A stretch of 64,000 nucleotides of DNA from positions 235,187 to 299,186 of the forward strand of contig CAWJKF010000008.1 in NCBI GenBank assembly GCA_963843335.1. Direction: 5' to 3'. The translations under genes were made by a program, and so were the position numbers. Shown piece after piece: positions 4,091-58,504 of the stretch; position 1 is the first letter of the stretch, and the number at the start of each line of letters is the position of its first letter. The notes under the pieces are model-generated. The model worked only from the letters and a program-made list of their open reading frames with translations. It did no database searches and was not told where the DNA came from. Origin of the DNA: an uncultured Chloroflexia bacterium. Lineage in GTDB: Bacteria > Chloroflexota > Limnocylindria > Limnocylindrales > CSP1-4.

Positions 4091-4286
4091 GGTTCACACG
4101 TGGCGTGCACCCGCGACCGATGAGCGTACCGGCGCGGGCCGTTTGGTCGCGTCCGCACACCAGGCGTGCACGGACGACGGCTGTGCGGGTCGTTCGGGGC
4201 ACATCCAGGCCGGTGAACCCCCCGCGCAGCAGCTCGCCGCCATCCGAAGGGGTCAGGTCGTCGTGGGTGCACACCGCACGTGAACC
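4091..4286. repeat. Inverted-repeat-bounded element, family A copy 1 (196 bp)
   Basis: Left arm ggttcacacgtggcgtgcacccgcgac (4091-4117) pairs with right arm gtcgtgggtgcacaccgcacgtgaacc (4260-4286); the same arms recur at 40064-40278. Confidence 0.75.
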
Positions 4287-4726
4287 GCCGGCACGGCCCC
4301 TTCGGCCCCGCACCTCATGTGGTCCCGGACATCAGGCCGCGCCCTGCCGGGGGAAGGCCGTCCCCGTCTCGTGCCGGCTCTTGAGACCCGCGACGATGGC
4401 AAGATTGGTCGCGGAACCAGTGCGATGAGGAACGGTTGGTGATCCCGTGACCTTCGTGCCATGGAAGGCGGCGCCCGCCGCCATCAGGATCCGGTCATGG
4501 CGCCGATGCTGACCGCAGCCATGTCCCGTCCCGGGGTTCGCGGTCGCGCATCGTGGTCGCCAACGGGCCGACCCGTTCCTCGCTGCACGGCCAGCGACGG
4601 TGCGTGCACCTTCGCGTGCGGTGGTAGCCCGGGAGCCCCGGCGCTGCCCACCACGGCGGACCGCCCGACCTGCGCCATCACGCCCGGCGCACCCGAGGTT
4701 CGGGTGTCCCCGGTCCTGATCACGCT

Positions 4727-5140
4727 GTGATGATCGCGAGGCGCCGCGTGTCAGCGGCCGGCGTGGCGCTGCTCGCCGTCTGCGTCCTCGCCGCATGGAG
4801 CGTGTTCTTTCGCCCAACGCCGGCGACCCTCTCCAACGGTCCCGGTCCGGGCTTCTACGCCGTGCCACTGGAGCCGCTGGCGACCCTGTCGCTGCGGGGC
4901 GGCCATCAGATCCTGCCGCCGACCGGGCATCCGATCCCGACGACCACGTACAGGGTCGACTGGGTCGCCACCTGCGAAGCCCGCGCGCGGCTCCAGGGGA
5001 TCGACCTGTTCGATACCGTCTCGGACGGACTGACCGGCGAACGTCTCGTCACCATCACCGCCTCCAACCCGGACACCCGGTTCGAGACGACGCACTGCGG
5101 CGACGACGACACGGTCGACGTCTGGCTCTCCAGGCCCTGA
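4727..5140 (+). CDS. Hypothetical exported/membrane-anchored protein
   Basis: N-terminal hydrophobic helix (AAGVALLAVCVLAAWSVFF); 137 aa; no recognised domain. Confidence 0.5.
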   Translation: MMIARRRVSAAGVALLAVCVLAAWSVFFRPTPATLSNGPGPGFYAVPLEPLATLSLRGGHQILPPTGHPIPTTTYRVDWVATCEARARLQGIDLFDTVSDGLTGERLVTITASNPDTRFETTHCGDDDTVDVWLSRP

Positions 5141-5409
5141 CCCGTCCTCCGGAAAGCTCGTCGTCCGGGCGTCCGTCCGGGTTGCGTTTCGGGACGACAG
5201 GTTGGAGCACAGAGGCAGCCCCGACGGCTATGAGGCGGCTCTCCATTGGCAGTGCTGACCGCCGATGGCACGAAGGTCAGGCGATCACGGTTGGTAATCG
5301 GTGGCTTGGAGCAGGTGCTCGGGCGGTGCCAAGCATCGGGCGGACAGAACCGTGTGGGGTGACCCGGTCGCGGTGCTCGTCGCGCTCGAGAGGGATGGGA
5401 GGGTATCCG

Positions 5410-6130
5410 ATGCGGATGCGGCCGTCCTGCCGTCGAGGCCCTGTCTTGCTGTCCGCGTTGGTCCTGGCGGCGTTCGCGGGAGCGGCTCCGACCGTCGCCC
5501 AGTCCCCGTCGCCCGGCAAGGATGAGGGGCTCATCGTGTTCGGGACCGAGGGCTCGACGCATTGCCAGACCTTCCACACGATCCGGCCCGACGGGTCGCA
5601 GCCGACCCAGCTGGCAGGTGACTGCGGGCCCCAGAACCACGTCCGCTGGCTGCCGGGCAGCGCGGGCGTCATCTATGACCGCGGCCCGGATCCCGCGCGC
5701 AACCTGTTCGTGTCCGCGCCCGATGGCACGGAACCCCGTGCCATCACCGCCGTCACCGACGGCACCCTCTGGTCACCGAGCGTCTCGGCAGACGGGACGA
5801 CCATGATCTACGAGCGGGATACCCTGAACACGGCCCGGGGCATCTTCCTCGCTGACCCCGATGGCACCCACGAGCGCCAGCTGACCGTCGTGTCCGACCC
5901 GGTCCGAGGATACGACGGCAGCCCTGACCTCTCACCGGACGGCAGCACGATCGTGTTCACGCGCGTCACCGGCCCAAACACGGCGGACCTCTGGCTGATC
6001 GACGCGGACGGCAAGGGCCTGAGGCGGCTGACCCATGGACTCCCGTTCCCCGACTACCCGCGATGGTCACCGGACGGACGACGTGTCCTCTTCGCGACCG
6101 ACCTGGGCGTCGGTTCGATCTCGACGGTCT
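5410..6130 (+). CDS. Secreted TolB-like/PD40-repeat beta-propeller protein (3' end uncertain; the ORF reads on to 6483)
   Basis: Signal peptide followed by AQSPSP; repeats PSVSADG, PDLSPDG and PRWSPDG. Confidence 0.75.
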
Positions 6131-6150
6131 CTCCGGTTGGACGCGTCCCG

Positions 6151-6366
6151 TCAGGCGGGCGGGTCGGCGGCCCACCGGAGGATGTCGCCCGGCTGGCAAT
6201 CGAGCACCCGGCACATCGCGTCCAGGGTGGTGAAGCGGATGGCTCGGGCCCGTCCGTTTTTGAGCACCGCGACGTTCGCCGGGGTGATGCCGACGGCCCT
6301 GGCGAAGTCGCCCACGGACATCTTGCGTCGGGCGAGCATGACGTCGAGCTCGACGACGAGGGCCAT
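6151..6366 (-). CDS. Cro/C1-type HTH transcriptional regulator (YozG-like)
   Basis: LDVMLARRKMSVGDFARAVGITPANVAVLKNGRARAIRFTTLDAMCRVLDCQPGDIL; TGATG overlap with the upstream gene. Confidence 0.9.
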   Translation of the reverse strand: MALVVELDVMLARRKMSVGDFARAVGITPANVAVLKNGRARAIRFTTLDAMCRVLDCQPGDILRWAADPPA

Positions 6367-6842
6367 CAGATGACCCAGTCGAGCTCGGCACGGTCGGCCG
6401 TTGCCGCCTCGAGCAGTCCCCGCATGACGATCATGAGCAGCACGAACGCAAGCGTGAGGGCGATGCAGACGACCAGGAGGTAGACCGTCGGGCCGCCACC
6501 ACTCGGGACGAAGCCGAGCATGTGGACCAGGACGATGGCGGTCAGCGTCGCGGCCACCGCTGCGCAGGCGATGATGACGTCGACCCAGCGCACGGCACGA
6601 CGGGTGAAGATGATTCGCTCGCCGACGAATGACAGCAGCCGCCAGACGGCGACCAACGCCACCTGGCCACAGGCGATGAACAGGATCGCAGCCATCGAGT
6701 AGGGGATGACGAGATACGCGACCTCGGGCACCCTGGTCCCTTCCCCGGAGGCCCACACGGGTACGAGGACCTGCACCAGCACGGAGACGAGCAGGAAGAC
6801 GACGAGCGCGACGCGCAGAGTTTGCATGGCGAGCCGGTTCAT
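6366..6842 (-). CDS. DUF2975-family membrane protein
   Basis: Four TM helices and a C-terminal LLEAATADRAELDWVI; the usual partner of YozG-type HTH genes. Confidence 0.8.
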   Translation of the reverse strand: MNRLAMQTLRVALVVFLLVSVLVQVLVPVWASGEGTRVPEVAYLVIPYSMAAILFIACGQVALVAVWRLLSFVGERIIFTRRAVRWVDVIIACAAVAATLTAIVLVHMLGFVPSGGGPTVYLLVVCIALTLAFVLLMIVMRGLLEAATADRAELDWVI

Positions 6843-6957
6843 CTAGCGAGTATCGATTGGTTCCCATCGAGTGTCAATCGGTCCGGACCAAGCGCCGTCC
6901 GATGGCCGTCCGATGGCCGTCCGGCCAGGACGCCAACTCCGTGCGAGAATCCGCCCG

Positions 6958-8100
6958 GTGGAGCGGCACGAGCTGACCCCGGCGCTCGTGCGGTGCCTCA
7001 TCGCCCGCACGTACCCGGCGTGGGCGGATCTCCCTGTCCGGCGGGTCGACCTCGACGGCTGGGACAACGCGACGTTCCGCCTCGGCGACATGCTTTCCGT
7101 CCGACTGCCGAGCGCCGACGGCTACGTGCCCCAGATCGCCAAGGAGCACCGCTGGCTGCCGCACCTGGCCGCGGCGCTCCCGCTGCCGATCCCCGAACCG
7201 GTCGCGATGGCCGGGCCGACGTGCGGGTTCCCACGGCCGTGGTCGGTCTACCGATGGCTGGATGGCGACGTCGCGGCGTCCACGACCATCGCCAACCCCG
7301 TCACGTTCGCCGGCGACCTCGCGCGGTTCCTCGTGGCCCTGCGGGCGGCGGACGCGACCGGCGGCCCGTCTGCCGGCGCGCACAGCTTCGGTCGGGGCGG
7401 CCCGCTCGAGATCTACGACGCCGAGACGCGTGCGGCCATCGTATCGCTGGGGCCTCGGATCGACGGGACGGCGGCGATCCGGACCTGGGAGGACGCGCTC
7501 CATCGGCCATGGCGGGGAGCGCCGGTCTGGGTCCATGGCGACGTCAGCCCATCGAACCTGCTGGTGCGGGATGGTCGGCTGGCCGCCGTCATCGACTTCG
7601 GCTGCAGCGCCATCGGTGACCCCGCCTGCGACACGGTCATGGCCTGGACCTTCTTCGATGGCGTGGCCGCAACGACGTTCCGGCGCACGCTCGAGCTTGA
7701 TGCCGACACCTGGGCGCGCGGTCGTGGCTGGGCCCTGTGGAAGGCGCTCATCACCCTGCGCGACCACCAGGACGACGATGCCACGATAGCCGCGACCATC
7801 CGGCGCTTCGGCTGGCGGCTCGGGCCGGCGGAGGTCATCGCCCGCGTCACCTCCGAGCACGTCGGAGGCGGGCCATTGACGATGCTCAGACCGGGCAGGC
7901 CCAGCTCGACAGCGGATGGCGGTGCGTGCGATCCGATCAAGACAGAACATCACCTGCGGACTGATCGCCGGCAGACCGGCCGAGGCCGACGCACACCGCC
8001 ACGCTCAGCTCGGGCGCCAGTCCGGCCAGAACCCGTGACGATCAGATCGTTGGACAACGATGTGTCATGGCGCGACTGGCCATCAGTCCGTGGCGGATGA
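6958..8100 (+). CDS. Aminoglycoside phosphotransferase (APH)-family kinase; homologous region ends near 7870
   Basis: GWDNATFRLG, KEHRWLP, WVHGDVSPSNLLV, VIDFG, GDPACD and WARGRGWAL. Confidence 0.85.
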   Translation: MERHELTPALVRCLIARTYPAWADLPVRRVDLDGWDNATFRLGDMLSVRLPSADGYVPQIAKEHRWLPHLAAALPLPIPEPVAMAGPTCGFPRPWSVYRWLDGDVAASTTIANPVTFAGDLARFLVALRAADATGGPSAGAHSFGRGGPLEIYDAETRAAIVSLGPRIDGTAAIRTWEDALHRPWRGAPVWVHGDVSPSNLLVRDGRLAAVIDFGCSAIGDPACDTVMAWTFFDGVAATTFRRTLELDADTWARGRGWALWKALITLRDHQDDDATIAATIRRFGWRLGPAEVIARVTSEHVGGGPLTMLRPGRPSSTADGGACDPIKTEHHLRTDRRQTGRGRRTPPRSARAPVRPEPVTIRSLDNDVSWRDWPSVRGG

Positions 8101-8125
8101 TCGGTCTCACGGGGTCGCGATCGGA

Positions 8126-9007
8126 TCAGGCCGAGACCGAGAGTTCCCGGCAGGTGTTCGTGAGCGCGCCGATGCCCTCGATATCGATGGTCACGACATC
8201 CCCGTCACGGAGACGGTTGGGGGGCTGCTGGTAGACCAGCACACCTGATGGCGTGCCGGTCGCGATGACATCACCCGGCTCGAGGGTGAAGGCGCGCGAG
8301 CAGAAGGCCACGATGCGCGCGACGCTGAACACCATCTGCGACGTGTTCGAGTCCTGGACGGCGACGCCATTGAGGATGCCCTTGATGGCCAGCCGCTGCG
8401 GGTCCGGGATCTCGTCCGCGGTGGTGATGACCGGACCCATCGGCCCGAAGGTGTCGAGCGACTTCGCCCGCACGAACTGCTTGTCCGCTCGCTGCAGGTC
8501 ACGGGCGCTCACATCATTGACGCAGGTGTAACCGAACACGTACGACAGTGCGTCCGCCTCGGACACCCGCCGGGCGGTACGGCCGATGACGACGCCCAGC
8601 TCCGCCTCCAGATCGACCGACTTCGTGAGCTCGGGATCCCAATCGATGGTCGCGCCGGGTCCCACGATCGAGGTCGTGAACTTGGTGAACAGCATCGGCT
8701 CGACCGGCGGCTCGACGCCGCCTTCCTTGGCGTGATCGAAGTAGTTCAGGCCGACCGCGACCAGCTTTCCCGGACGGGTGAGCGGCGCGAGGATCCGGAC
8801 CGATGTTGCGTCGACCGTCGACGCGGCAGTGGCGCCGACGACCGCGGCACGCAGGGCGTCGAGGGCCGCTTCCCCGCCGGCGATGAGCGCCGGCATCGTC
8901 GACGCCACGCCCGCACCCAGGGCCGCCGTCGGCAGCAGCCGTCCATCCGGCCGCTCGACCGCGAGCCGTTCGGTGCCGTCGCCCTGCTGGAATGTGACGA
9001 GTCGCAT
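8126..9007 (-). CDS. Fumarylacetoacetate hydrolase family protein
   Basis: PGKLVAVGLNYFDHA, PMLFTK, DLEAELGVVIG, NDVSARDLQ, KSLDTFGPMGP and PGDVIATGTPSG. Confidence 0.92.
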   Translation of the reverse strand: MRLVTFQQGDGTERLAVERPDGRLLPTAALGAGVASTMPALIAGGEAALDALRAAVVGATAASTVDATSVRILAPLTRPGKLVAVGLNYFDHAKEGGVEPPVEPMLFTKFTTSIVGPGATIDWDPELTKSVDLEAELGVVIGRTARRVSEADALSYVFGYTCVNDVSARDLQRADKQFVRAKSLDTFGPMGPVITTADEIPDPQRLAIKGILNGVAVQDSNTSQMVFSVARIVAFCSRAFTLEPGDVIATGTPSGVLVYQQPPNRLRDGDVVTIDIEGIGALTNTCRELSVSA

Positions 9008-9046
9008 GATCCTCCCGAGCCTCTGTACGCCCGATGCGTGAACGGG

Positions 9047-11742: not shown

Positions 11743-11899
11743 ATGCCTCCTTCGGGGTTGGGTGCGATTCCCGACCGGTGGTCGGTCCGAGCGGACGGGG
11801 TCCGTGATGGCCAGCCCACGACCCGGCGCCAGTCATGGCGACGGTGGATCCCCTGGCAGGGAGCCGACGGTGACAGTCCGGATGGGAGAAGGGTGGCAT
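11743..11899 (+). ncRNA. FMN (RFN) riboswitch
   Basis: ccttcggggttgggtgcgattcccgaccggtggt ... agcccacgacc ... ggagccgacggtgacagtccggatgggagaagg. P1 (atgcctccttc / gaagggtggcat) covers the SD-like sequence and an ATG at 11898. Confidence 0.92.
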
Positions 11900-32005: not shown

Positions 32006-32485
32006 ATGAGCGTGCGTGGTCGGCCCATCGAGGGCGGCTTCCGGTACCGCCACCCCGTCGAGGTGCGCTACGGCGACACGGACGCCCTGGGGCACGTGAA
32101 CAACGCCACGTACCTGTCCTACTTCGAGGCCGCCCGGGCCGGCTACTACGCGGCCGTCGCGGGTCGTCCCTTCGGGACCGGTCCGGATGCGCTGCGGCAC
32201 ACGTTCGTCATCGCCGAGGCGCGGGTGGTCTATCGGCAGCCCGCCTACTTCGGCGAGCCGCTCGTGGTGGAGGCGCGCGTCGCGTGGGCGTCGCGGTCCT
32301 CGTTCGGGCTGGAATACCGGGTGCTGTCCGAGGGCGGACCCATCGCGCCGGCGCGCCTGGTGGCGGACGGCGACACGACCCAGGTGATGTTCGATATCAG
32401 CTACGCGCGCCCGACACGCATCCCCGTAGACCTGCTCACGGCCATCGAGGCGTTCGAGGGTCATCCGATCCCGCCTCGGCCCTGA
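32006..32485 (+). CDS. Acyl-CoA thioesterase (4HBT/YbgC hot-dog fold)
   Basis: VEVRYGDTDALGHVNNATYLSYFEAAR. Confidence 0.9.
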   Translation: MSVRGRPIEGGFRYRHPVEVRYGDTDALGHVNNATYLSYFEAARAGYYAAVAGRPFGTGPDALRHTFVIAEARVVYRQPAYFGEPLVVEARVAWASRSSFGLEYRVLSEGGPIAPARLVADGDTTQVMFDISYARPTRIPVDLLTAIEAFEGHPIPPRP

Positions 32486-32531
32486 TCTCTCGGCCGGGGC
32501 CGTCGCCCGGACCTCGGGCGTAGCGAGCCGT

Positions 32532-32763
32532 GGCTCGTGGGGCGAGTCAAGGGACCGGCGGCCGGCCTCCAGCGTCCCGCTGGCCGATGTGATGGACACC
32601 ATGGCTCCCCGGGCGAGGCAGGGGGCCGGTGGCAGCCCTGGCGACCGCGGTTCATCCGTCGAATGGTGCACCGGCGGAGCGGGATGGCGGTCCAAGCCGC
32701 TCCAGCTCCGCTCCCGGCCTGAAGTCCCGATGCCCGACCGCCCGTTGACTCGCCCGGTGAGCC
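32532..32763. repeat. Inverted-repeat-bounded element, family B copy 1 (232 bp)
   Basis: Left arm ggctcgtggggcgagtcaagggaccg; right arm reverse complement ggctcaccgggcgagtcaacgggcgg; lies between convergent genes; arms recur at 58292-58504. Confidence 0.7.
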
Positions 32764-32766
32764 CCA

Positions 32767-33879
32767 TCACGCGGCCGGCAGCCGGACCGTGATGGTGGTA
32801 CCGACGCCCGGCTCGCTGAGGGCCTCGATGGCGCCGCCGTGCGCCTCCACGATCGCCTTCGCGATGGCCAGTCCCAGGCCGCTGCCGGTGGAGTCGGCAG
32901 ACCGCGTGAAGCGCTCGAAGATCGTCGGCAGGATGGCGGGGTCGACGCCCTGGCCAGTGTCCCGAACGTTCACCACTGCCCCGGTCGCCCCCGCCCCGGC
33001 CGCGACCGTCACCTCGATGGTGCCGCCAGCGGGCGTGTGGCGCAACGAGTTGGCGACCAGGTTGCGGATGACGCTCGCGATGCGCCCCGGATCGATGGGC
33101 GTGGGCGCCAGGCCGGCGGTGACCACGACCGACAGACGCACCCCGGCGTGGTCGGCGCTCGGCCGGAATGACTCGACGACCTCGGTCACCAGCGCACCGA
33201 GGTCGGTCGGCTGCCGGACGAGCCGGAGGCTGCCGGAGTCGCTCAGGGCGAGCGTGCGCAGGTCATCCACGAGCGACTCGAGCGTCCGGACCTGGCCCAG
33301 GGCAGGCGCGATGTGGGCCGCGTCCGCTGGATAGACCCCATCGCGGATCGCCTCCAGCTGGCCCTGGATGACCGTCAGCGGTGTGCGCAGCTCGTGGCTG
33401 ACGTCGGCCATGAACGATCGACGCTGCGCATCGCTCTCACCGAGCCGTTGGCTCATCTGGTTGAACGCGCGGGCCAGCAGACGTTGCTCCGCGGAGCCGG
33501 TCTCGGGCACCCTCGCCGAGTAGTCCCCGTCCTGGACCCGTGCGGCTGCGTCCACGAACGGCGCGACGGCCGTCGTTCGTCGCCAGAGCCAGAGCCTCGC
33601 CACCAGCGCGGCCAGCAGGAGCATCACCACCAGCCCCAGGGCGACCGCGACCAGCGCACCGAGGAGCGATCCGCCGTTGCCGGACCAGAGCGCCAGGACG
33701 ACGATGACCACCGGGATGGCGACGACGGACAGGCAGCCCACGGAACAGCCACGGCGGTGGGTGCGCCGCCAGGAACCCGCAGCGTATGCCCACGGCGCCG
33801 AGCTCTGCGGTGGCCACGGCTCGTCCTCGGGCCACCAGGGTGGTCGACGTCGGGGACGCGGTCCGTGTCCCGGGCTCAC
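32767..33879 (-). CDS. HAMP-domain sensor histidine kinase (BaeS-like)
   Basis: Two TM helices, HAMP, DVSHELRTPL, NLVANSLRH, DTGQGV and GSGLGLAI. Confidence 0.92.
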   Translation of the reverse strand: MSPGHGPRPRRRPPWWPEDEPWPPQSSAPWAYAAGSWRRTHRRGCSVGCLSVVAIPVVIVVLALWSGNGGSLLGALVAVALGLVVMLLLAALVARLWLWRRTTAVAPFVDAAARVQDGDYSARVPETGSAEQRLLARAFNQMSQRLGESDAQRRSFMADVSHELRTPLTVIQGQLEAIRDGVYPADAAHIAPALGQVRTLESLVDDLRTLALSDSGSLRLVRQPTDLGALVTEVVESFRPSADHAGVRLSVVVTAGLAPTPIDPGRIASVIRNLVANSLRHTPAGGTIEVTVAAGAGATGAVVNVRDTGQGVDPAILPTIFERFTRSADSTGSGLGLAIAKAIVEAHGGAIEALSEPGVGTTITVRLPAA

Positions 33880-34559
33880 CGGTCGTCGGCCAGTCGGTAG
33901 CCCACCCCGAACACGGTCAAGAGATAGTGGGGCGCCCGCGGGTCCGGCTCCAGCTTCCGGCGGATGTTCTTGATGTGGGCATCGATGGCCCGCTCATACG
34001 ACTCGAACGCCACGCCATGGACCGCATCGAGCAGCTGTGCCCGGGTGAAGACGCGCCCCGGCTGGCGCGCCATCACGGCGAGCAGCTGGAACTCGGTCGG
34101 CGTCAGCTCCACCGGCCGCCCGGCGACCGTCACGAGCATCCGGTCCAGGTCGAGCACCAGGTCGCCATCCTGGAGCAGGGTGGCAGGTGCGTGGGCGGTC
34201 TCGGCCCGCCGGAGCACGGCTCGCACCCGCGCGACGAGCTCGCGCGGACTGAAGGGCTTGGTGATGTAGTCGTCCGCGCCAAGCTCCAGGCCGATGAGCG
34301 TGTCGGTCTCCTCGGTCCGGGCAGTGAGCATGATGATGGGCAGGTCGCTCGTGCGCCGGATGGCACGAGCGACGTCAAGGCCGTCTCCATCGGGCAGCCC
34401 CAGGTCAAGGATGAGCAGGTCCGGCCGCTCCGTCCGCGAGAGTCGCAGGGCGCCCTCGGCGGTACCGGCCGTGACGACCCGGAACCCCGCGTGGACGAGG
34501 TAGTCAGTCGTGAGGCGCAGGATGTCGGTCGCGTCGTCGACGACGAGGATGGTGGGCAT
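33876..34559 (-). CDS. OmpR-family response regulator
   Basis: ILVVDD, LILDLGLPDGDG, IIMLTA, DYITKPF and winged helix LTPTEF..VFTRAQLL. Confidence 0.93.
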   Translation of the reverse strand: MPTILVVDDATDILRLTTDYLVHAGFRVVTAGTAEGALRLSRTERPDLLILDLGLPDGDGLDVARAIRRTSDLPIIMLTARTEETDTLIGLELGADDYITKPFSPRELVARVRAVLRRAETAHAPATLLQDGDLVLDLDRMLVTVAGRPVELTPTEFQLLAVMARQPGRVFTRAQLLDAVHGVAFESYERAIDAHIKNIRRKLEPDPRAPHYLLTVFGVGYRLADDR

Positions 34560-34630
34560 CGCGGAAGATGCTATGCGACGGACGTGACGGGGGAGGGCAT
34601 CGGCCGTCCCCCGTCGTCCTGCTCGCTCGG

Positions 34631-35032
34631 TCAGGATGCCGAGCCGGGTCCGCCCTCGGGAGCGTCAGCCTGCGGCGTGGCGCAACCTTCCGGTCGGGGT
34701 CCCCAACCGCCGGCTGCCCATGGACCGCGCGGTGCCCAGGGACCCGGTCCACTCGCCGCGTGCATCTGTGCCCAGCCGCCCCGGCCGCCCCACGCCGCAC
34801 GTCGGATGATGCCGACGATGAGCGCGAACAGCAGGATACCGACGAGCAGCCCCACGAAGGGGAAGCCGAAGCCCCAACCCCATCCGGACTGGACCACATA
34901 CGTGACCTGCGCGCCGCTGGCCGCGACCGCGTTCGCGGTCGCGTTGGCAGCACCCAGGGTGTAGCCGATCCCCCCGGCTACCAGGGACAAGAGCAGGACC
35001 AGGACCACCCCGATCCATCCGAACCGCCGCAT
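34631..35032 (-). CDS. Small membrane protein with Gly/Trp/Pro-rich tail
   Basis: Two hydrophobic helices; co-oriented immediately upstream of the response regulator. Confidence 0.6.
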   Translation of the reverse strand: MRRFGWIGVVLVLLLSLVAGGIGYTLGAANATANAVAASGAQVTYVVQSGWGWGFGFPFVGLLVGILLFALIVGIIRRAAWGGRGGWAQMHAASGPGPWAPRGPWAAGGWGPRPEGCATPQADAPEGGPGSAS

Positions 35033-35166
35033 GAGGACCTCCTTGCGTTGCATCGGTGATGTGACTACGGTGGCGGCGAGTTGTGCGCAGGATGTGCACG
35101 AGGCACGCAGATGGCGTGGACGTGGGAGACGGGCGCAGGCGCGTGCCAGCCCGAGGGGATGACATC

Positions 35167-35257
35167 AATCATCGGATGACCATCGTGCCCCTGGACGTGT
35201 CGCTGTCGTGCTGCTGTCGCGACGCTGGTCCGCTACCCTATGAATCATCGGATGACC
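35167..35257. promoter_or_regulatory. Two identical 15-bp sites AATCATCGGATGACC (palindromic core TCATC-g-GATGA), candidate operators
   Basis: Exact copies at 35167-35181 and 35243-35257, upstream of eda. Confidence 0.65.
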
Positions 35258-35317
35258 CGCGCGGACGCACCCCGCTGGTCGTCCAGCCAGACCGCACAAC
35301 ACTGGGTGAGTCGTTCG

Positions 35318-39101: not shown

Positions 39102-40022
39102 GCCGCATCGTCATCACCGACTGCGATCAGGGCAGCATCGAGATCGAGCGGACCGTGTTCAGCACGGCCGGTCACGAGGTCACGCTGGCCCAGTGCCGGA
39201 CGGCCGACGAGGTCATCGCTGTCGGGTCCAGGCGTCGATCGCGCTCCTGGCCCAGTACGCGCCCATCACGGCAGCGGTCATGGATGCGCTGCCGACGGTC
39301 CGGGTCGTCGGTCGATATGGCGTGAGCCTCGACAACATCGAGCTGCCCGCTGCCGCGGCGCGGGGCATCCGGGTCGTGAACGTGCCCGACTACTGCATCG
39401 ATGAGGTGGCCGACCACGCCATCGGGCTGCTGCTGGCACTCACCCGGGGCATCGTCGCGCAGGATCGGGCCATCCATGCTGGCACCTGGGACTTCCACAC
39501 GGGCGGCGAGCTGCGGCGCGCCCGCGGAAGGCGGCTGGGCATCATCGGCCTTGGGCGCATCGGGTCGGCGACCGCGCGACGCGCGCAGGCGCTGGGCTTC
39601 CAGGTGGTCGCCACCGACCCCGCGCGCCGGTGGTCGACGGCGTGCCGCTGCTGGCCCTCGACGAGCTCCTGGCGACGAGCGACATCGTGAGCCTCCACGC
39701 CCCGCTCGACCCGTCGACGCGACACATGCTCGATGCTGCGGCCCTGGCCCGGATGCGACCCGGGGCGCTCCTCGTGAACACTTCGCGTGGCGGCCTCGTC
39801 GACCAGGCCGCGCTCGTGGAGGCGCTTCGGTCGGGTCATCTCGGCGGTGCTGCGCTCGATGTCCTGGAGCGGGAACCGATCCTGCCCACTGACCCGCTGC
39901 TGACCCTGCGGAACGTCATCCTCACGCCCCACGCCGCCTTCTACAGCCGCGAGTCCTTGGTGGAGATGAAGCGACGCGTGGCGGAGGGCATCGTCGCCGC
40001 GCTCGCGGAGCTGCCCGCCTGA
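39098..40022 (+). CDS. D-isomer-specific 2-hydroxyacid dehydrogenase (CtBP-like; frameshifts)
   Basis: [46 protein letters not shown] and LTPHAAF. Confidence 0.88.
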
Positions 40023-40063
40023 GCCGAGGTGCCGTGGCCGATGCTCGTGGGCACGCTCCGGCG

Positions 40064-40278
40064 CTGCACACGAGGTGTGCACCCGCGACAGAGTTGACGG
40101 CCTTCGCGCCGCCAGGCGTGCCCTGGCGTTTCGGTGCGCGCTGTTGCTGGGCCCCGATCCGTCGTTCCTGCACGGTGGACGTGAATCCCGACCCTACGGG
40201 GTCGATCGCGTGTCGATCGCCGGTCATCCGCGGGCGATCCGCTCGTCATCTCGTCGCGGGTGCACACCTGATGTGAAC
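40064..40278. repeat. Inverted-repeat-bounded element, family A copy 2 (215 bp)
   Basis: Left arm ctgcacacgaggtgtgcacccgcgac pairs with right arm gtcgcgggtgcacacctgatgtgaac; lies between convergent genes. Confidence 0.78.
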
Positions 40279-40304
40279 GGGCCGGGCACCGGCGTCCCGC
40301 ACCG

Positions 40305-40324
40305 GGCACGGGCGTTCCCGTGCC
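40305..40324. terminator. GC-rich hairpin between convergent genes (possible terminator; no U-tract)
   Basis: ggcacggg-cgtt-cccgtgcc perfect 8-bp stem. Confidence 0.4.
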
Positions 40325-40330
40325 GCACCG

Positions 40331-40429
40331 GGCCGGAGGACCGAGCCGGGCCGGAGGACCGAGCAGGCCGGAAGGAGCGAGGCAGGCCGCAGGAGCGAGG
40401 CAGGCCGCAGGAGCGAGGCAGGCCTCAGG
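40331..40429. repeat. Degenerate ~18-bp tandem repeat (5 copies plus a partial)
   Basis: ggccggaggaccgagc.. grading into ggccgcaggagcgaggca; the last partial unit contains the fabF stop codon. Confidence 0.8.
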
Positions 40430-41695
40430 CCTGGAAGCGCCGGAAGACCGCCACGGCGTTCTGGCCGCCGAAGCCGAAGCCGTTGATGATCGCGGTGTCC
40501 ACTCGCCGCTGGCGCGCCACGTTGGGCGTGTAGTCCAGGTCGCACTCCGGCAGGTCGGGGTTGCGCCAGGTTGATGGTCGGCGGCACGACGTTGTCGCGG
40601 ATGGCTCCGATGGCCGTCAACGCGCTCATCACGCCCGCAGCGCCGAGCAGGTGGCCGACCATCGACTTGGGTGACGAGATCGCCACCTTCCGCGCGTGGT
40701 CGCCAAAGGCCGCCTTGATGGCGCGCGTCTCGGTCACATCGTTGAGCGGCGTCGAGGTCCCATGGGCCACGATGTAGTCGACCTCATCGGGCGCGATGCC
40801 AGCGTCGCGGAGCGCCAGCGTCATGGCCCGGGTCGCGCCGCGGCCGGTCGGCTCGGGCGCCGAGATGTGGAAGGCGTCGGCGGTCAGGGCCGCGCCAAGG
40901 ACCTCGGCGTGGATGGTCGCGCCGCGGGCGAGCGCATGCTCGGCACTCTCGAGCACGACCACACCCGCGCCCTCACCGAACAGGAACCCGTCGCGGTCGC
41001 GATCGAACGGCCGTGAGGCGCGGCTGGGGTCGTCGTTGCGCTTGGACAGCGCGCCCATGTTGGACAGCGCGGCGAATGCGATGGGCAGCAGTGGCGCCTC
41101 CGAGCCACCCGCCAGGACGACGTCCACCTCGCCCCGCTGGATGAGGCGCAGGCCATCGAGGAAGGCGATGACCGAGCTGGCACACGCGGCGACCTGGGTG
41201 GTCACCGGTCCGGTCAGCCCATACTCCATCGAGAGCATGCAGGCGGCCATCGAGCCGGACAGTGCCGGGATCGCGAACGGGCTGACCTGCCCGGGGCCCT
41301 TGCGCTGGAGGGTCGCGGTACCATCGATGACCTGCTCCTGGCCGCCCCCGCTGGTATTCACCGTGACCGCCACGCGATCCCGCTGGTCGGCGTCCCAGGT
41401 CGAGAAGTCGAGGCCGGCGTCCGCGACCGCCTCCTTGCCTGCTGCCATGCCCAGGTGGATGAAGCGGCTCATGCGGCGAGCCATCTTGCGATCCATCGCC
41501 ACGGTCGGGTCGAAGTCCTTGACCTCGGCCGCGATGCGCACGTCATACGGGGTCGCGTCGAAATGGGTGATGGGACCGCCTCCGCTGACGCCGGCGACCA
41601 GGTTCCGCCAGAACGTGGCGTGGTCGTTGCCGATGGGCGTCACGGCACCCAGGCCGGTGACGACGGCGCGGCGGGACAGGTCGGTACTCGGGCAC
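40425..41695 (-). CDS. fabF: Beta-ketoacyl-ACP synthase II, paralogue 1 (indels at the start and near 40560)
   Basis: [15 protein letters not shown] (Cys), [10 protein letters not shown] (His), GHLLGAAG (His) and NGFGFGGQN. Confidence 0.9.
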
Positions 41696-44261: not shown

Positions 44262-45524
44262 TCAGTCGCCGTCGTAGCGCTTGAAGATGACGGCGCCGTT
44301 GTGGCCACCCAGCCCGATGTTGTCGGACATGGCATAGCGGATCTCCATCGGCCGCGACTTGCCGTGGACCACGTCGAGCACGATCTCCGGGTCCGGCTCC
44401 GTGTAGTTGAGCGTCGCGGGCGCCAGCTGATGGTGGACCGAGAGGACCGTGAAGACGCCCTCGACGGCTCCCGCGGCGCCCATCAGGTGGCCGGTCATCG
44501 ACTTGGTGCCCGTGATGGCGATCTCCGTGGCCCGGTCGCCGAAGACGGAGTGGATCGCCTGGGCCTCGCGCAGGTCGCCCAGCGGCGTCGACGTGCCATG
44601 GGGGTTGATGAGGTCGATCTGGTCGCGTGGCACGTCGTGGCGATACAGCGCGAACTCCATCGCCCGCCGCGTGCCATCGCCCTTCTCGACCGGCTGGATG
44701 AGGTCCCAGGCGTCGCCCGCGGAACCAAAGCCGACGACCTCGGCGTAGATCCGGGCGCCGCGTGCCTTCGCCAGGTCGAGGTCCTCGAGCACCATGGCGC
44801 CGGCGCCCTCACCGAGCACGAAGCCGTTGCGGCTCTTGTCGAACGGGCGAGAGATCGATGACAGCCCCTCGTCACCGCGGGGCGTGCCCATGCCCCGCAT
44901 GTTGCTGAAGCCGACGTAGCCGACCTCGAACAGGGGGGTCTCGGTCGAGCCGCAGATGACGGTGGTGAAGTCACCCCGGCGGATGCCCTCGGCCGCCTCG
45001 CCGATGTTGTGGGTGCCCGTCGAGCAGGCAGTGACGATGCACATGTTCGGGCCGCGGGCGCCGAGCTCGATGGCGATCTGGCCCGACGCGGTGTCGGGCA
45101 GCATGTTGGCGATGAAGAATGGGCTGACCGAACGGGGCCGCGACTTCATGGTCTCGATGGCATCCGCCATCAATCCCGGGCCGCCGACGCCGGAGCCGAA
45201 GACGACGCCGACCTCGTCGGCGTTCGAGTCGTCGATGACGAGGCCCGCGTCGGCCGCCGCCTGCTTTGCCGCAGCGACCCCGAAGACGACGTTCTTGTCG
45301 GTGCGTCGCACCGCCTTGAAGTCCATCCACGCGTTGGGGTCGAAGTCATGGACCTCGCCCGCGGCCTGGCAATCCATCGCGGACGCGTCCCAGTAGGTGA
45401 TCTGGCGCAGTCCGGACGTGCCGGCGGTCAGGTTCGCCCACGCGGTCGGGATGTCGGACCCCACCGGGCTCACGATGCCCAGGCCGGTGACGGCGACACG
45501 ACGGCTGAAATCGGGCTTGCGCAT
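44262..45524 (-). CDS. fabF: Beta-ketoacyl-ACP synthase II, paralogue 2
   Basis: RVAVTGLG, VTACSTG (Cys), PHGTSTPLGD, GHLMGAAG and GLGGHNG; intact ORF. Confidence 0.92.
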   Translation of the reverse strand: MRKPDFSRRVAVTGLGIVSPVGSDIPTAWANLTAGTSGLRQITYWDASAMDCQAAGEVHDFDPNAWMDFKAVRRTDKNVVFGVAAAKQAAADAGLVIDDSNADEVGVVFGSGVGGPGLMADAIETMKSRPRSVSPFFIANMLPDTASGQIAIELGARGPNMCIVTACSTGTHNIGEAAEGIRRGDFTTVICGSTETPLFEVGYVGFSNMRGMGTPRGDEGLSSISRPFDKSRNGFVLGEGAGAMVLEDLDLAKARGARIYAEVVGFGSAGDAWDLIQPVEKGDGTRRAMEFALYRHDVPRDQIDLINPHGTSTPLGDLREAQAIHSVFGDRATEIAITGTKSMTGHLMGAAGAVEGVFTVLSVHHQLAPATLNYTEPDPEIVLDVVHGKSRPMEIRYAMSDNIGLGGHNGAVIFKRYDGD

Positions 45525-53188: not shown

Positions 53189-53201
53189 CCGGGCCTGCCG
53201 A

Positions 53202-53672
53202 CTATCCGGGGTGGCGGGTGGTTTCGGCGGCCAACCACGACCGGGCGCGAGGCCGGATGGCGATGACGGCGCAGGTCCAGGTCGTGCGTCGCGTACTGCG
53301 GGTAGCGGCCCGGAGCGCCGCGATCGCGCCAGCCCGTGCTCGTCCGGCGTCGGTCGGGCCAGACGACCCGGGCGACCCCTGGACCCGCAGCCAGGCCAGA
53401 GCTTGGCCCAGTCCTCGTCCCAGTGGTCGACGAGCAGCGTCACACGCGGGTCGCGCTCGACATCGCGGACACGCGCGAGTTGCGCGGGCATCCGATGCGC
53501 GCTTGGGCTTGGCGTCGATGGGGGTGACGATCATCTGGCCATCGGGCCGCTCGACGAGCGCGAAGCAGCAGGGCACCAGCCGCGCACGTCCGTCCGGGGC
53601 GAGGGTCGCCAGGGTCGCGCGCCGTGCGAGGTCCAGCAGCCGCAGCTGCCCAGGGTCGAGCCGGATGGTCAC
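53202..53672 (-). CDS. PPOX-class putative F420-dependent oxidoreductase (TIGR03668/Rv0121-like; frameshifts)
   Basis: RATLATL, LVPCCFA, TPIDAKPK, RVRDVERDPRVTLLVDHWDEDW and LAWLRVQG. Confidence 0.8.
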   Translation of the reverse strand: MTIRLDPGQLRLLDLARRATLATLAPDGRARLVPCCFALVERPDGQMIVTPIDAKPKRASDARATRACPRCRARPACDAARRPLGRGLGQALAWLRVQGSPGSSGPTDAGRARAGAIAALRAATRSTRRTTWTCAVIAIRPRARSWLAAETTRHPG

Positions 53673-53707
53673 CGGGGCTCCGCCGGACGCCGGGTGTGGG
53701 TCCGCCG

Positions 53708-55411: not shown

Positions 55412-55630
55412 GATGGGTGGGACTCCTCGGGAACTCGGGATGGCGCCAGTGTACGGCGCGGGTCCGGTAACCGGCCGGCACCAGCTCGAGTGCGCGGGTC
55501 GGTGCCCGGCCGCCGCCGGCTCGGGACCGCGAGTCGCCCAGTGGGTGATCAGGCCTATCGGGTTGCCGTGATGGCCCTGCACCGGCCGTTCGATGCGCCC
55601 AGCGACCAGGTCGACCGACGACGGGTCCGG

Positions 55631-56254
55631 TCAGCCCGGATCAGCTGGGGCGGTCTGGCCCAGCGTGATGCCCAGGGCGGCGCCGGCCTCCCCGCGCAGG
55701 AGCCCGAAGACCAGGTCGGTGTGGAGCGCGCCATCTGATGCCCGATAGCGGTCACGGAGGGTGCCCTCGAGCCGGAAGCCAAGGCGCCGGGCCACGGCAC
55801 CGCTCGCGGTGTTCTGCTCATCGCACCAGATCTCGAGCCGCTGCGCGGCGAGCTCCCGGAACGCGAGCGCGGCGAGGGCTCGGGCCGCCTCCGTCACGTA
55901 GCCCTGGCCGGCGAAGCGAGTTCGGACCCAGTAGCCGATCTCGAACCGGTCGGCGGCCCAGTCGATCCGGTGGAGGCCCGTGGAGCCGACCATGATCCGA
56001 GGGTCCGAGCGCAGGTAGATCGGGAAACGCAGGTCCCGTCGGAGCAGGAAGTCGGCGCGTGCCAGGCGGACGTTCTCCTCGGCCGACTCGGCGTCGGGTG
56101 CCTCCTGCGCCCAGGGCAGCCACGGCCGCAGCTCGTCGAGCGACTCGGTGACGGCGGCCCGGAACTCCTCGCCATCCCCGGGGCGCGGGGCACGCAGCAC
56201 CAGCCGCTCGGTCTGGAGCTCCTCGGGGACGTGGCGCAGGATCGGGCGGCTCAT
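55631..56254 (-). CDS. GNAT N-acetyltransferase (RimJ/RimL-like)
   Basis: QTERLVLR, EIGYW, GQGYVTEA, NTASGAVARRLGFRLEG. Confidence 0.88.
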   Translation of the reverse strand: MSRPILRHVPEELQTERLVLRAPRPGDGEEFRAAVTESLDELRPWLPWAQEAPDAESAEENVRLARADFLLRRDLRFPIYLRSDPRIMVGSTGLHRIDWAADRFEIGYWVRTRFAGQGYVTEAARALAALAFRELAAQRLEIWCDEQNTASGAVARRLGFRLEGTLRDRYRASDGALHTDLVFGLLRGEAGAALGITLGQTAPADPG

Positions 56255-56380
56255 CGTTCGACGATACCGCGAGCGTGCCTCCAGCGGCCACCGTCCAGGG
56301 AGCAGTTGAACGTTTCGGTCGCGGCGTCGCTCATAGTGGGTAGTCCGCGCCATGTGGCGCGGTACCGCGTGAGGTCCAGG

Positions 56381-56932
56381 GTGGATCCAGACCTCGTGGA
56401 ACGAGCCCGTACTGGCGATACCGACGCGTTCGCGGTCCTGGTGCATCAGGTCAGCGATCCGCTGTTCGCGGTCGCCTATCGGATCCTCAGGGATTCGGAC
56501 CTCGCGGAGGACGCGCTGCAGAACGCCCTCCTCACGGCATGGCGGCAGCTTCCGGAGCTGCGCGATGCCGAGCGGTTCGAAGCCTGGGCCCATCGGATCC
56601 TGGTCCACGCCTGCTACGCGGAGGCGGGTCGACGCCGGCGATGGTCGGCGAACATCCGCGTCATCCATCCGGATGTCTCATGGTCCCCCGACGCCAGCCA
56701 ATCGCTGGCCGACCGGGACGAGCTCGAACGCATCTTCCGGCGTCTGCCCATCGAGCAGCGCGCCGTATTCGTCCTGCATCACTACCTGGGCCTGGCCCTG
56801 ACCGAGATCGCCGGCACGCTCGGCATCCCCCAGGGCACGGCCCGTTCCCGCCTGCACTACGCCACCCGCGCGCTGCGGTCGGCCATCACGGCCGAACGTG
56901 GGGTCGCGATCACGGAGGACCGCCCGGCATGA
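56381..56932 (+). CDS. ECF RNA polymerase sigma factor
   Basis: DAFAVLV, AYRIL, AEDALQ, FEAWAHRI, LPIEQRAVFVL and GTARSRLHYA. Confidence 0.92.
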   Translation: MDPDLVERARTGDTDAFAVLVHQVSDPLFAVAYRILRDSDLAEDALQNALLTAWRQLPELRDAERFEAWAHRILVHACYAEAGRRRRWSANIRVIHPDVSWSPDASQSLADRDELERIFRRLPIEQRAVFVLHHYLGLALTEIAGTLGIPQGTARSRLHYATRALRSAITAERGVAITEDRPA

Positions 56933-58233
56933 CCGACGACGAGCGGTTCGAACGCATCGCGAGCGACTGGATGTCGGTCGGGCCCGCACAGGCTCCCGAC
57001 CATGTCATCCAGGCGGTCCTCCGCGCCCTTCCATCGACACACCAGGAACGGGGCCGTCGTGCCCCGCTGTGGAGGTTCCAGCGAATGTCCGGCTTCATCC
57101 GGGCGGCTGCGATCGCGGCCGCCGCCATGTCCGTCATCTCCGTGCCCATCATCGTGAACGGCGGGCGCCCGTCGGCGCCGCGCCCTGCGCTGCCCCCGAC
57201 GGCATGCCCGAGCGGCAGCCCACTGGCGAGCGGCACCATCGCCACGGTCGCCGGCACGTTCGGTGCCGGCAGCCCCCAACCCTTGACCGCGGGCACCGCG
57301 GCCATCGGTGCTCATGTTGGGGTCAACGCCGTTGCGGTCGCGCCAGGCGGGACGCTCGTCCTGTCGGACGGGATCACGCCCGCCGTGTGGCAGGTCGGCA
57401 GCGATGGATCGCTCCAGACCTTCGTGGACACGTCGACCGCTCCCCAGCTCCAGATGCCCAACGGCATCGCGTTCGATGCCGACGGGAACCTCTTCATCGC
57501 CGACACCATGGGCTCCAGGGTGTGGCGGCGCACGCCGTCGGGCGAGGTGACGCTCGTGGCGGGTACCGGCGTTGGCGGCACGGATGGCAACGAAGGCCCG
57601 GCGCTCTCGGCGACGCTCGAGAACCCGAGCACCATCGCGGTCGGGCCGGACGGTTCGGTCTACTTCGACGACCACAACAACTTCCGGCGGGTCGACCCAC
57701 AGGGGACGATCCACGCCTTCGCCGGCAGCCTGACGCCGGGCTACACGGGCGACGGCGGTCCGGCCACCGCAGCCACTCTTGGCGAGAGCGTCCTGGGTGC
57801 CGCGGCGGACGGACGGGGGAACATCTACCTGGGGGACGAGTCCAACCACGTGGTCCGGAAGGTCGACCCCAAGGGGGTGATCACCACCGTCGCCGGCACT
57901 GGCACGCTCGGCTACAGCGGTGATGGCGGCCAGGCGACCGAGACGGACCTGGAGGAACCGGTCGGGCTCGCGGTCGACTCGGACGGCTCGATCTACCTGG
58001 TCGACAACCAGTCTGGCACCGTCCAGCGCATCGATCCCTCAGGCGTCATCACGACCGTGGCCGGTACGGGAGCGATCAGGGCCCTGGGCGGCCCGGGCAG
58101 TGCGGAAGCGGCAGGCGATTGCGGTCCTGCCACGCTCGCGACGCTCGACCTGCCGAGCGCCCTCGCCGTCCGGGATGGCGTGCTGTACATCGTCGACGGC
58201 AGCAACACGCGGGTGCGCATGGTCGTGCCGTAG
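56929..58233 (+). CDS. Putative anti-sigma factor with a TM helix and extracytoplasmic NHL-repeat beta-propeller
   Basis: ATGA overlap with the sigma gene; repeats PNGIAFDADGNLFIAD, IATVAGT and GYSGDGG. Confidence 0.8.
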   Translation: MTDDERFERIASDWMSVGPAQAPDHVIQAVLRALPSTHQERGRRAPLWRFQRMSGFIRAAAIAAAAMSVISVPIIVNGGRPSAPRPALPPTACPSGSPLASGTIATVAGTFGAGSPQPLTAGTAAIGAHVGVNAVAVAPGGTLVLSDGITPAVWQVGSDGSLQTFVDTSTAPQLQMPNGIAFDADGNLFIADTMGSRVWRRTPSGEVTLVAGTGVGGTDGNEGPALSATLENPSTIAVGPDGSVYFDDHNNFRRVDPQGTIHAFAGSLTPGYTGDGGPATAATLGESVLGAAADGRGNIYLGDESNHVVRKVDPKGVITTVAGTGTLGYSGDGGQATETDLEEPVGLAVDSDGSIYLVDNQSGTVQRIDPSGVITTVAGTGAIRALGGPGSAEAAGDCGPATLATLDLPSALAVRDGVLYIVDGSNTRVRMVVP

Positions 58234-58291
58234 CCGGCGCCGTCCCTCCCGTGGGGCACCCGGTGGGCCACTGGACCCGTCAGCGCGCACC

Positions 58292-58504
58292 GGCTCACCC
58301 GGTGAGCCAAGGGACCGGTGAACCGCACGGTCGCGGCCCGTGCCGGGGTCCGCCGCCCCCTGGAGGCCGTCCTCGATGGTGCCGAGCGGTCGATCAGCGC
58401 ATCTCGTGAGCCATCCGACCGGCGACGCTCTTCAGGAAACGTGCTGAGGTCGGGTCTTGGCATGACGGCCACGCCCGGCGGTCCCTTGACGCAGGACGTG
58501 AGCC
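58292..58504. repeat. Inverted-repeat-bounded element, family B copy 2 (213 bp)
   Basis: Left arm ggctcacccggtgagccaagggaccg; right arm reverse complement ggctcacgtcctgcgtcaagggaccg; lies between convergent genes. Confidence 0.75.

Follow-up and report, generated by a model that had tools for sequence, protein, structure and literature searches.

What are the four short intergenic elements carried by a 64,000-nucleotide stretch of an uncultured Limnocylindrales genome (Chloroflexota, lineage CSP1-4), and which enzyme, if any, accompanies them? The stretch, hereafter the window, corresponds to contig C8:235187–299186 of a metagenome-assembled genome (MAG G000; 4.42 Mb, 70% G+C, 21 contigs, completeness 73%). 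Repetitive extragenic palindromic (REP) sequences and their inverted doublets (REPINs) are among the commonest bacterial non-coding repeats, and RAYT, a tyrosine transposase, is to our knowledge the sole enzyme identified as their partner. An initial annotation, made from the sequence alone, had proposed two families of REPIN-like doublets in the window, and had suggested looking for a RAYT or DUF559-type endonuclease gene elsewhere in the genome. The reading that we favour, and consider probable, is that the elements are non-coding, species-specific doublets of the REP, REPIN or bacterial interspersed mosaic element (BIME) type, and that one family, here called A, goes together with a gene encoding a helix-turn-helix (HTH) plus nuclease-like protein in a REPtron-like layout.

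Four doublets of two families in the window

All four elements were recovered within 2 nt of the positions first given for them. The arms of family A follow the pattern T[TG]CAC-N7-GTGCACCCGYGAC, or in its longer form T[TG]CAC-N7-GTGCACCCG[CT]GAC, and those of family B the pattern GGCTC-N7-GAGYCAAGGGACCG, or GGCTC[AG][CT]-N3-4-G[CT]GAG[TC]CAA[GC]GG[AG]C[CG]G. The window contains four arms of each family, compared with 0.03 (A, at up to two mismatches, 100 shuffles) and 0.02 (B) expected from shuffled sequence. Both patterns were derived from the window elements, and the independent test is the genome-wide count described below.

Element A1 consists of a left arm TTCACACGTGGCGTGCACCCGCGAC (4093–4117, + strand) and a right arm whose reverse complement is TTCACGTGCGGTGTGCACCCACGAC (4260–4284, − strand), both matching the genome-wide A pattern. 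Between them lies a symmetric palindrome without strand, GTCGCGTC-CGCAC-N7-GTGCA-CGGACGAC (4146–4178, core 4154–4170), the position of which is conserved in 12 aligned A elements. Element A2 has the same arrangement, with arms matching the A pattern at 40065–40089 (TGCACACGAGGTGTGCACCCGCGAC, + strand) and 40253–40277 (reverse complement TTCACATCAGGTGTGCACCCGCGAC, − strand), and an internal palindrome TGCACGGTGGACGTGAA, located by alignment at 40169–40185 (no strand) and flanked by GTCGTTCC and TCCCGAC. In element B1, the left arm GGCTCGTGGGGCGAGTCAAGGGACCG (32532–32557, + strand) matches the B pattern, a weak internal B-like unit ATGGCTCCCCGGGCGAGGCAGGGGGCCGG was detected at 32600–32632 (+ strand; nhmmer E=10), and the right arm (32738–32763, − strand) ends 3 nt from the stop codon of a histidine-kinase gene. 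Element B2 has two arms matching the B pattern, GGCTCACCCGGTGAGCCAAGGGACCG at 58292–58317 (+ strand) and the reverse complement of GGCTCACGTCCTGCGTCAAGGGACCG at 58479–58504 (− strand), within an inserted segment of ~300 nt (58234–58551, no strand) that extends beyond the arms into unique sequence of ~58 and ~37 nt.

Three of the four elements had been placed between convergent genes, and Pfam matches support both neighbours in each case: thioesterase and histidine kinase for B1, 2-hydroxyacid dehydrogenase and ketoacyl synthase for A2, and an NHL-repeat protein and SnoaL for B2. For A1, the neighbour on the right is uncertain. The window itself was confirmed to hold no gene for a mobilising enzyme.

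Dispersal of the repeats across the genome

We next counted the arms in the whole genome, with the reversed pattern of each arm as a control. Family A arms occurred 28 times (14 on each strand) against 0 for the reversed pattern and 0 in 24 genomes of the same genus. Family B arms occurred 14 times against 1, with congeners at background level, and nhmmer located ~20 B units at 9 loci. All of these arms (28 and 14) are intergenic, and every A arm is a member of a convergent pair 180–304 bp apart, giving ~14 elements; B arms, too, are arranged as convergent pairs. These counts bear out the proposal of lineage-specific, dispersed, REPIN-like doublets that share one architecture in two families. 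The density first estimated, one element per 16 kb, holds for the window and not for the genome, in which A and B together amount to ~23 elements in 4.4 Mb. The genome-wide numbers are possibly slightly inflated by strain or sister-species redundancy in the bin, in which contigs C14, C15 and C16 are 87–94% identical and C9 and C10 99.6% identical, with further overlaps between C20 and C21 and between C6 and C21; the window is untouched by this redundancy.

Outside the window, the elements lie 30–70 nt from gene ends, and the doublet form is kept even between tandem genes. Some A loci carry extra tandem arms with periods of 51, 62 or 72 nt. The same arm variant, such as TTCACATCAGGCGTGCACCCGTGAC, can turn up at several unrelated loci and at either end of an element, which favours copying over an independent origin.

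Both families are real, but two is an underestimate, as the genome holds at least ten families of the same build. Inverted-pair scans and self-comparison of non-coding-like DNA revealed at least eight in addition to A and B, with the core units CGCGACTGGTAGTCGCG, CCCTGAGTCGCGCCGGTGCATCA, TACCCGCCCAGCGGGCGAGTGGAACGGCGAG, AGCCCGTGTAGTGCTGATC, ..GCGGGTGAG..GCCA[AC]CGA, CGTTCGCTGATGGCGCAGATC, GGTGAGCGATCCGGCCA[CT]CGAG and at least one more. Within every one of these families, the units of the left half have one orientation and those of the right half the other. Nested mosaics are also present, with C-family arms outside and G- or E-family units inside.

A composite of ~450 bp was found at two unrelated loci (C11:249285–249778 and C6:29166–29712) with 91% identity. 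It combines tandem repeats of 17 nt and tandem arms of the C family with an E-family doublet (nearly identical over 212 bp), and no other observation speaks as clearly for the recent copying of an entire element. C-family arms also adjoin a VapB/VapC-like pair (ribbon-helix-helix antitoxin and PIN-domain toxin) at C1:293900–294860.

Beyond this genome, a metagenome scan for the A arm returned four chance matches in unrelated coding DNA and no further A-bearing contigs. Searched de novo for repeats, 400 kb of the closest relative, G015, gave coding paralogues only and none of these families; the same method also missed A and B in the window's own contig, and is therefore no evidence that further families are absent from G015. 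A lone B-like arm, GGCTCACCCGGCGAGTCAAGAGAC, was observed in G015 (C7:104700–108700, at ~2017–2040) near a tRNA-like stretch and a fragment of a recombinase-like open reading frame (ORF); the HTH-nuclease gene described below has no paralogue close by.

Insertion history

Comparison with related genomes revealed presence/absence differences at the B1 and B2 sites. At the B2 site, 10 nt separate the two stop codons in G015 (~89% protein identity), compared with ~300 nt here. At the B1 site, the thioesterase and kinase stops are 2 nt apart in G046, and G019 has ~80 nt without an element. Blocks of ~300 nt where relatives have 2–10 nt mean that the DNA was inserted rather than evolved in place, and the elements are insertions. 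Two further species, G020 (~320 nt) and G018 (~390 nt), carry different palindromic elements at the B1 site, so that one gap has been filled by different families in different species. The G020 element (C6:25020–25620) contains three copies of GTCCA-N7-TGGAC ~90 nt apart, and the G018 element (C61:10000–10680) is of a TGTTC..GAACA type. A 12-mer taken from the G020 element, a poorly chosen pattern, occurred across the genus at background level only.

Elements A1, B1 and A2 lie exactly where synteny with G015 breaks (window 3975–8144, 32473–35314 and 40020–40428, respectively). At the first, this genome has 4.2 kb extra after an aminotransferase gene, at the second the thioesterase gene is followed by an additional 2.8 kb with a two-component system, and at the third G015 has 6.1 kb of other genes in place of the 410 bp that contain A2. 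Downstream synteny is not conserved at the A1 site, and no empty-site call was therefore made there. No target-site duplication was visible in the 12 aligned A elements or in the filled/empty comparison at B2, although the flanks are saturated by divergence in both. The strain-variant contigs of the MAG contain indels, none of which involves the repeats.

Two irregularities adjoin A2. Just upstream, the 2-hydroxyacid dehydrogenase (window 39193–40022, + strand) is split over two frames, with 39193–39690 covering positions 1–70 and 39630–40022 positions 80–178 of 2-Hacid_dh_C, by a frameshift or an assembly error. On the other side, the ketoacyl-synthase ORF extends ~60 codons beyond the stop position of its G015 orthologue (window 40246–40435), crossing tandem 17- and 21-nt repeats (two copies of GGGCCGGAGGACCGAGC and three of GGCAGGCCGCAGGAGCGAGGC) and the right arm of A2. 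The overrun likely represents a 3′-end frameshift or an extension due to the inserted DNA.

The arms resemble duplex binding sites

In an oriented alignment of 12 A elements, the interior, initially described as poorly conserved, contains in most elements a conserved palindrome, (G)TCG-N4-TGCACACCAGGCGTGCA-N4-CGAC. It lies ~36 nt after one arm (61–62 nt start to start), so that A elements are polar, in the order arm, ~36 nt, internal palindrome, 80–100 nt, arm. Arms and internal palindrome are kept, and the linkers, which are of roughly constant length, and outer flanks cannot be aligned between copies. The internal units of B elements were weaker in nhmmer searches. A CRISPR-like reading (clustered regularly interspaced short palindromic repeats) of the 61–62-bp periodicity was rejected, because the final unit has the opposite orientation and an array is lacking.

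The A and B arms are both 5-7-5 palindromes of the form X5-AC-NNN-GY-X5′, with five bases, a central AC-NNN-G[CT] and five complementary bases, and this common geometry accounts for the arm start GG(T/C)TCAC that the two families share. The generic palindrome T[GT]CAC-N7-GTG[CA]A was found at 37 sites with a spacing of 7, compared with 1–6 sites at other spacings, and relatives contained it at background level only.

A hairpin with a 5-bp stem and a 3-nt loop had been described within several arms. Some copies can form it, but it is not a conserved feature. Among 30 A arms, the inner stem pairs are standard in 17 and 25, against 18.0 and 25.2 after column shuffling, and there is no covariation. 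The commonest state of one inner pair is an A·C mismatch, and its neighbours (CAC, GTGCAC and CCG.GAC) are nearly invariant. Near-invariant positions without covariation point to sequence-specific recognition of duplex DNA rather than to a selected hairpin, and the arms are most likely putative double-stranded protein-binding sites. At the inner end, the A arms read CGTC (15 of 30), GGTC (11) or TGTC (3), separated from the 5-7-5 core by CGGG. B arms carry no CGTC-like tag, and no GTAG (GT[AG]G) tetranucleotide stands beside A or B palindromes. Readings of the arms as PhoP, GlnR, CRP or parS-like motifs were ruled out on spacing and half-site order, by reasoning only.

A partner gene bracketed by family A

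To find the partner of these repeats, we searched for the Y1 HUH transposase domain (PF01797, Y1_Tnp, covering RAYT and IS200), which gave no match in any of the 49 genomes of the genus, this genome and 48 congeners (nine of them at least 90% complete), while all six control genomes matched. The suggestion of a RAYT mobiliser was thus not upheld. The other suggestion, a gene flanked by the arms, was borne out: a gene for a nuclease-like protein, though not of the DUF559 type, lies between two A doublets on another contig. These doublets (C1:254593–254775 and C1:255583–255764) are in direct orientation with identical left arms, and bracket the ORF C1:254874–255629, designated p1. A GGDEF gene and an RskA anti-sigma gene flank the locus, the layout of which is REPtron-like.

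The product of p1 was called as 235 amino acids, the family norm being 217. It has an XRE-type HTH domain (HTH_3, 4e-10, 40.0 bits, cut-off 23; HTH_31, 6e-10, 39.7 bits, cut-off 27), followed by a C-terminal domain of ~140 amino acids with no match in Pfam, NCBIfam, PADLOC or PHROGs. Thirty homologues have fifteen invariant residues in common (D74, W94, E97, V98, R107, W109, D110, E123, E125, Q132, R136, R137, K141, R143 and D144), and E97, D110, E123 and K141 are conserved in the four intact paralogues of this genome. The AlphaFold2 model of the C-terminal domain (pLDDT 89, pTM 0.83) has an alpha-beta-beta-beta-alpha-beta core (helix 10–26; strands 32–35, 50–54 and 57–64; helix 70–83; strand 88–94). 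In a Foldseek search against the PDB, all leading matches were PD-(D/E)XK nucleases, the best being the archaeal Holliday-junction resolvase Hjc (2wj0_A, probability 0.97, E 0.016), followed by EcoT38I, AF1548, YaeQ, the R2 restriction-like endonuclease and Bax1, with TM-scores of 0.38–0.43. In the model, D110 falls at the start of strand 2, E123 on strand 3, and K141 on the next helix, and the position of the canonical lysine is occupied by E (V in p4). The C-terminal domain is therefore predicted to have an Hjc-like, PD-(D/E)XK nuclease fold, an assignment that is probable.

Eight paralogues are present in the genome, of which p1, p2, p4 and p5 are intact. Six of the eight are bracketed by six different repeat families, five of them being A, G, Z0, E and C and the sixth another. 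Besides p1, these are the intact p5 (C14:57575–58243, bracketed by a TACCCGC...GGCGAG family), the broken p6 (C11:266769–267417, bracketed by the GCGGGTGAG..GCCACCGA family), the partial p7 (on C12, AGCCCGTGTAGTGCTGATC family), the partial p8 (on C4, two plus two arms of the GAGTCGCGCCGGTGCATC family) and p3, which has one stop codon and is bracketed by the further family CATTCCCGCTGGGCGGTCACTGCGACC.

Orthologues of p1, with 73%, 69% and 61% identity, were found in three other species at the syntenic site, downstream of the GGDEF gene and convergent with RskA, and all three have A-type units on both sides. In one species, two doublets of ~180 bp form direct repeats that are 92–94% identical. 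In another, four to five tandem units of 51–52 bp (TTCACGCCGGGTGTGCACTCCTGAC) lie upstream and three units downstream, and in the third, GGCACACAGGCTGTGCACCAACGAC occurs twice upstream and GGTCGCGGGTGCACATCGGGCGTG downstream. The core palindrome of these units is constant and the tail varies by species. At least for family A, a partner gene thus exists outside the window, and gene and repeat are associated here and in three other species.

The partner family is present in 88 of the 151 Limnocylindria genomes sampled, with 1–14 copies each. Nearly every member of two families of the class has it, whereas a streamlined 1.1-Mb family lacks it. At E≤1e-30, it comprises 520 clusters (50% identity). 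Many members were found on contigs of 1–2 kb, as expected of genes flanked by repeats.

Proposed mechanism and its limits

The following sequence of events would account for these observations. After the species split from its relatives, doublets would have entered intergenic gaps, mostly between convergent stop codons, and since insertion the arms would have been kept as specific sequences while linkers drifted to saturation. HTH dimers would read the 17-bp (5-7-5) palindromes as duplex DNA, in keeping with the conservation pattern. The Hjc-like domain would then cut the bound site, or a cruciform extruded from the inverted doublet, and repair or strand exchange would copy or homogenise the arms without the linkers. 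In this scheme, p1 would be the cognate partner of family A, and the other paralogues would go with other repeat families. Of this scheme, the HTH domain and the association of gene and repeats are observed, and arm binding, cleavage and mobilisation are inferred. Cutting at the doublet or cruciform would copy or maintain the repeats, as is proposed of RAYT for REPINs. By analogy, family B may have an equivalent partner in the 27% of the genome that is unassembled.

A more ambitious version of this scheme is that the locus belongs to a second, independent REPIN/RAYT-like system, in which vertically inherited paralogues of the HTH plus resolvase-like protein each have their own 5-7-5 palindrome and cruciform-forming doublets, A and B being two such populations. 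In such a system, gaps between genes would be seeded by the doublets, which across the genomes of Limnocylindria would also mark the points where synteny breaks. We put this forward tentatively, as a possibility that falls short of being the likelier outcome.

Several observations weigh against the favoured reading. The intact paralogues p2 and p4 have no flanking repeats. No partner was found for family B, as none of the eight assembled paralogues has a B arm nearby. In another genus, G112 has a B-like doublet, ACGCTCACCCGGCGAGATTC, just after the stop codon of one paralogue, but in that genome the doublet is not a dispersed one, and most G112 copies of the gene have no clear flanking repeats. 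The fold-search E-values are weak (none at or below 0.001, with Hjc the best), and the canonical ExK reads E-x-E or E-x-V, so the PD-(D/E)XK assignment is probable and not proven. Copy numbers are low (A 14, B ~9), leaving current mobility unproven, and the MAG is incomplete, with some strain redundancy. Finally, the gene-repeat association could reflect plain DNA binding, that is, autoregulation together with dispersed operators.

Alternative explanations

This last possibility, taken as a full explanation, is the main rival. The HTH protein would be a regulator or nucleoid protein, and the doublets would be dispersed, immobile operators kept by host selection with no copying. The operators of XRE-type and C proteins are palindromes suited to dimers, as the 5-7-5 palindromes would be; position-specific conservation without covariation fits protein-DNA contacts; and the vertical inheritance of the partner gene at a fixed site and the recurrent 61–62-bp spacing of units can be read in the same way. 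A regulator, however, would have no promoter to act upon beyond the stop codons of convergent genes, and host-selected operators do not account for ~300-nt blocks at sites where relatives have 2–10 nt, for identical arm variants at unrelated loci, for at least ten species-specific families of one build in a single genome, or for an attached nuclease-like domain with invariant acidic residues. We consider this explanation improbable, although it survives better than the others.

Alternatively, the elements could be ordinary miniature inverted-repeat transposable elements (MITEs) of a DDE insertion sequence, with full-length copies outside the assembly and the repeats beside the HTH gene a coincidence. 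Such elements have terminal inverted repeats like the 25–26-nt arms found here, and the length (180–300 bp), intergenic position and absence from relatives agree with this explanation, as do the composite duplicated at two loci with 91% identity and the frequent loss of insertion-sequence contigs from MAGs. Between copies, however, the interiors are non-homologous, while the arms and one internal palindrome are kept, and no target-site duplication is visible in the diverged flanks. In this incomplete genome, the arms of an A or B pair are at most 304 bp apart, the one exception being those around the HTH-nuclease gene, and the metagenome scan brought no further A-bearing contigs. Chance insertion also leaves unexplained why six families should each be found around a paralogue of one non-DDE protein, and why A-type bracketing recurs at the syntenic site in four species. 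The MITE explanation is accordingly unlikely. Long self-repeats of the genome were also inspected as insertion-sequence candidates and rejected; they represent strain redundancy or ordinary genes and contain no transposases.

An RNA-level role, as bidirectional terminators or as stabilising hairpins in the 3′ untranslated regions of convergent transcripts, has been proposed for many REPs. The elements lie 40–70 nt past the stop codons, and the first arm reached by either of the convergent transcripts would be in sense orientation. In single-strand folds, the two arms form a long closing helix in all four elements, and A2 and A1 fold better than shuffled sequences (z −5.6 and −2.6), but B elements do not (z −0.4 and −0.9). 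The arm hairpin lacks covariation, there are no U tracts, and a scan of the window at Rfam gathering thresholds gave no family at any element. The same build is kept between tandem genes, and relatives manage with only 2–10 nt between the same genes. An RNA role could in any case be a secondary effect rather than the origin of the elements, and as an explanation of that origin we regard it as quite unlikely.

That these are RAYT-dependent REPINs with the RAYT gene unassembled, a reading to which the doublet architecture, species specificity and several families per genome lend some resemblance (PMC3116915, PMC3733652), is very improbable and close to refuted, given the absence of PF01797 throughout the genus, the lack of a GTAG tag, and the presence of a different gene in the REPtron position.

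Comparison with known systems

The closest parallel is provided by the REPINs and RAYTs of Pseudomonas and Enterobacteria (Bertels & Rainey 2011, PMC3116915; PMC3337134; PMC6006769) and the REPtrons described by Ton-Hoang et al. (2012), as cited by PMC6006769. In both cases, inverted doublets of short palindromes that can form one long hairpin occupy extragenic sites, often after genes; several species-specific families coexist in one genome; and a vertically inherited partner gene stands between copies of its own repeat, each repeat family having one paralogue. The present elements differ in that the partner is an XRE-HTH plus PD-(D/E)XK-like protein rather than a Y1 HUH transposase, that the GTAG tag is missing, and that there is no sign of the hairpin being the recognised form. 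The spacers here are 130–180 nt long with an internal palindrome, the copies number tens rather than hundreds, and the host belongs to the Chloroflexota.

Di Nocera, De Gregorio & Rocco (2013, PMC3733652) defined GTAG- and CGTC-tagged superfamilies of REPs. The CGTC REPs form mainly head-to-head dimers with spacers of 20–100 nt between convergent or unidirectional ORFs, and apparently have no dedicated transposase; their families have 8–9-bp stems starting with A/T pairs, 4–5-nt loops and CCA tails (PMC3733652). Family A is similar in that all 14 doublets have their tags pointing inwards, towards each other, and that the arms, read from the inner end, start with (C/G)GTC, roughly half of them with CGTC and a third with GGTC. 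In contrast, A and B have a 5-7-5 core without defined stem, loop or tail, only CAC/GTG is constant in A, the A tag stands 4–5 nt away from the palindrome, and B has no tag.

The predicted nuclease domain shares with archaeal Hjc (2wj0, 2wcw) and other PD-(D/E)XK proteins the alpha-beta-beta-beta-alpha-beta core and, in the model, the acidic residues on strands 2 and 3. It differs from Hjc in its low similarity (TM-scores 0.38–0.43, identity 18–22%), HTH fusion, E-x-E/V motif and invariant lysine on the following helix. Correia and NEMIS elements are MITEs. As non-coding intergenic elements of 100–300 bp with terminal inverted repeats of ~26 bp they resemble those described here, but in the latter no target-site duplication was seen, the interiors are non-homologous and no DDE parent was found. 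The BIMEs of Escherichia coli and the RIMEs (Rhizobium-specific intergenic mosaic elements) are mosaic intergenic elements. They are similar in combining palindromic unit types with linkers (partly from PMC6006769); the units of BIMEs alternate, whereas those found here switch orientation once in mid-array, and their linker motifs are unconserved.

Our search of the full-text literature returned no report of an HTH plus PD-(D/E)XK partner for palindromic repeats. The REPtron position is filled here by a different, uncharacterised class of protein, belonging to a family that is widespread in an abundant, uncultured class of soil bacteria. If this protein acts on the repeats, symbioses between repeats and partner genes would have evolved more than once, the spread of palindromic repeats that lack a RAYT would gain a testable candidate, and sequence-programmable, junction- or site-specific nucleases would be opened to study. 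The repeats also account for breaks of contigs and of synteny in Limnocylindria MAGs.

Other features of the genome and window

The genome contains 41 runs of at least 16 G/C, which are possibly a sequencing artefact. In the window, the sole match at the Rfam gathering level was an FMN riboswitch (RF00050, 67.4 bits) at 11744–11897 on the + strand. A ketoacyl-synthase gene block is present as a tandem duplicate with a period of 3830 nt and ~70% identity, as seen between 40894–41017 and 44730–44853 and their neighbours.

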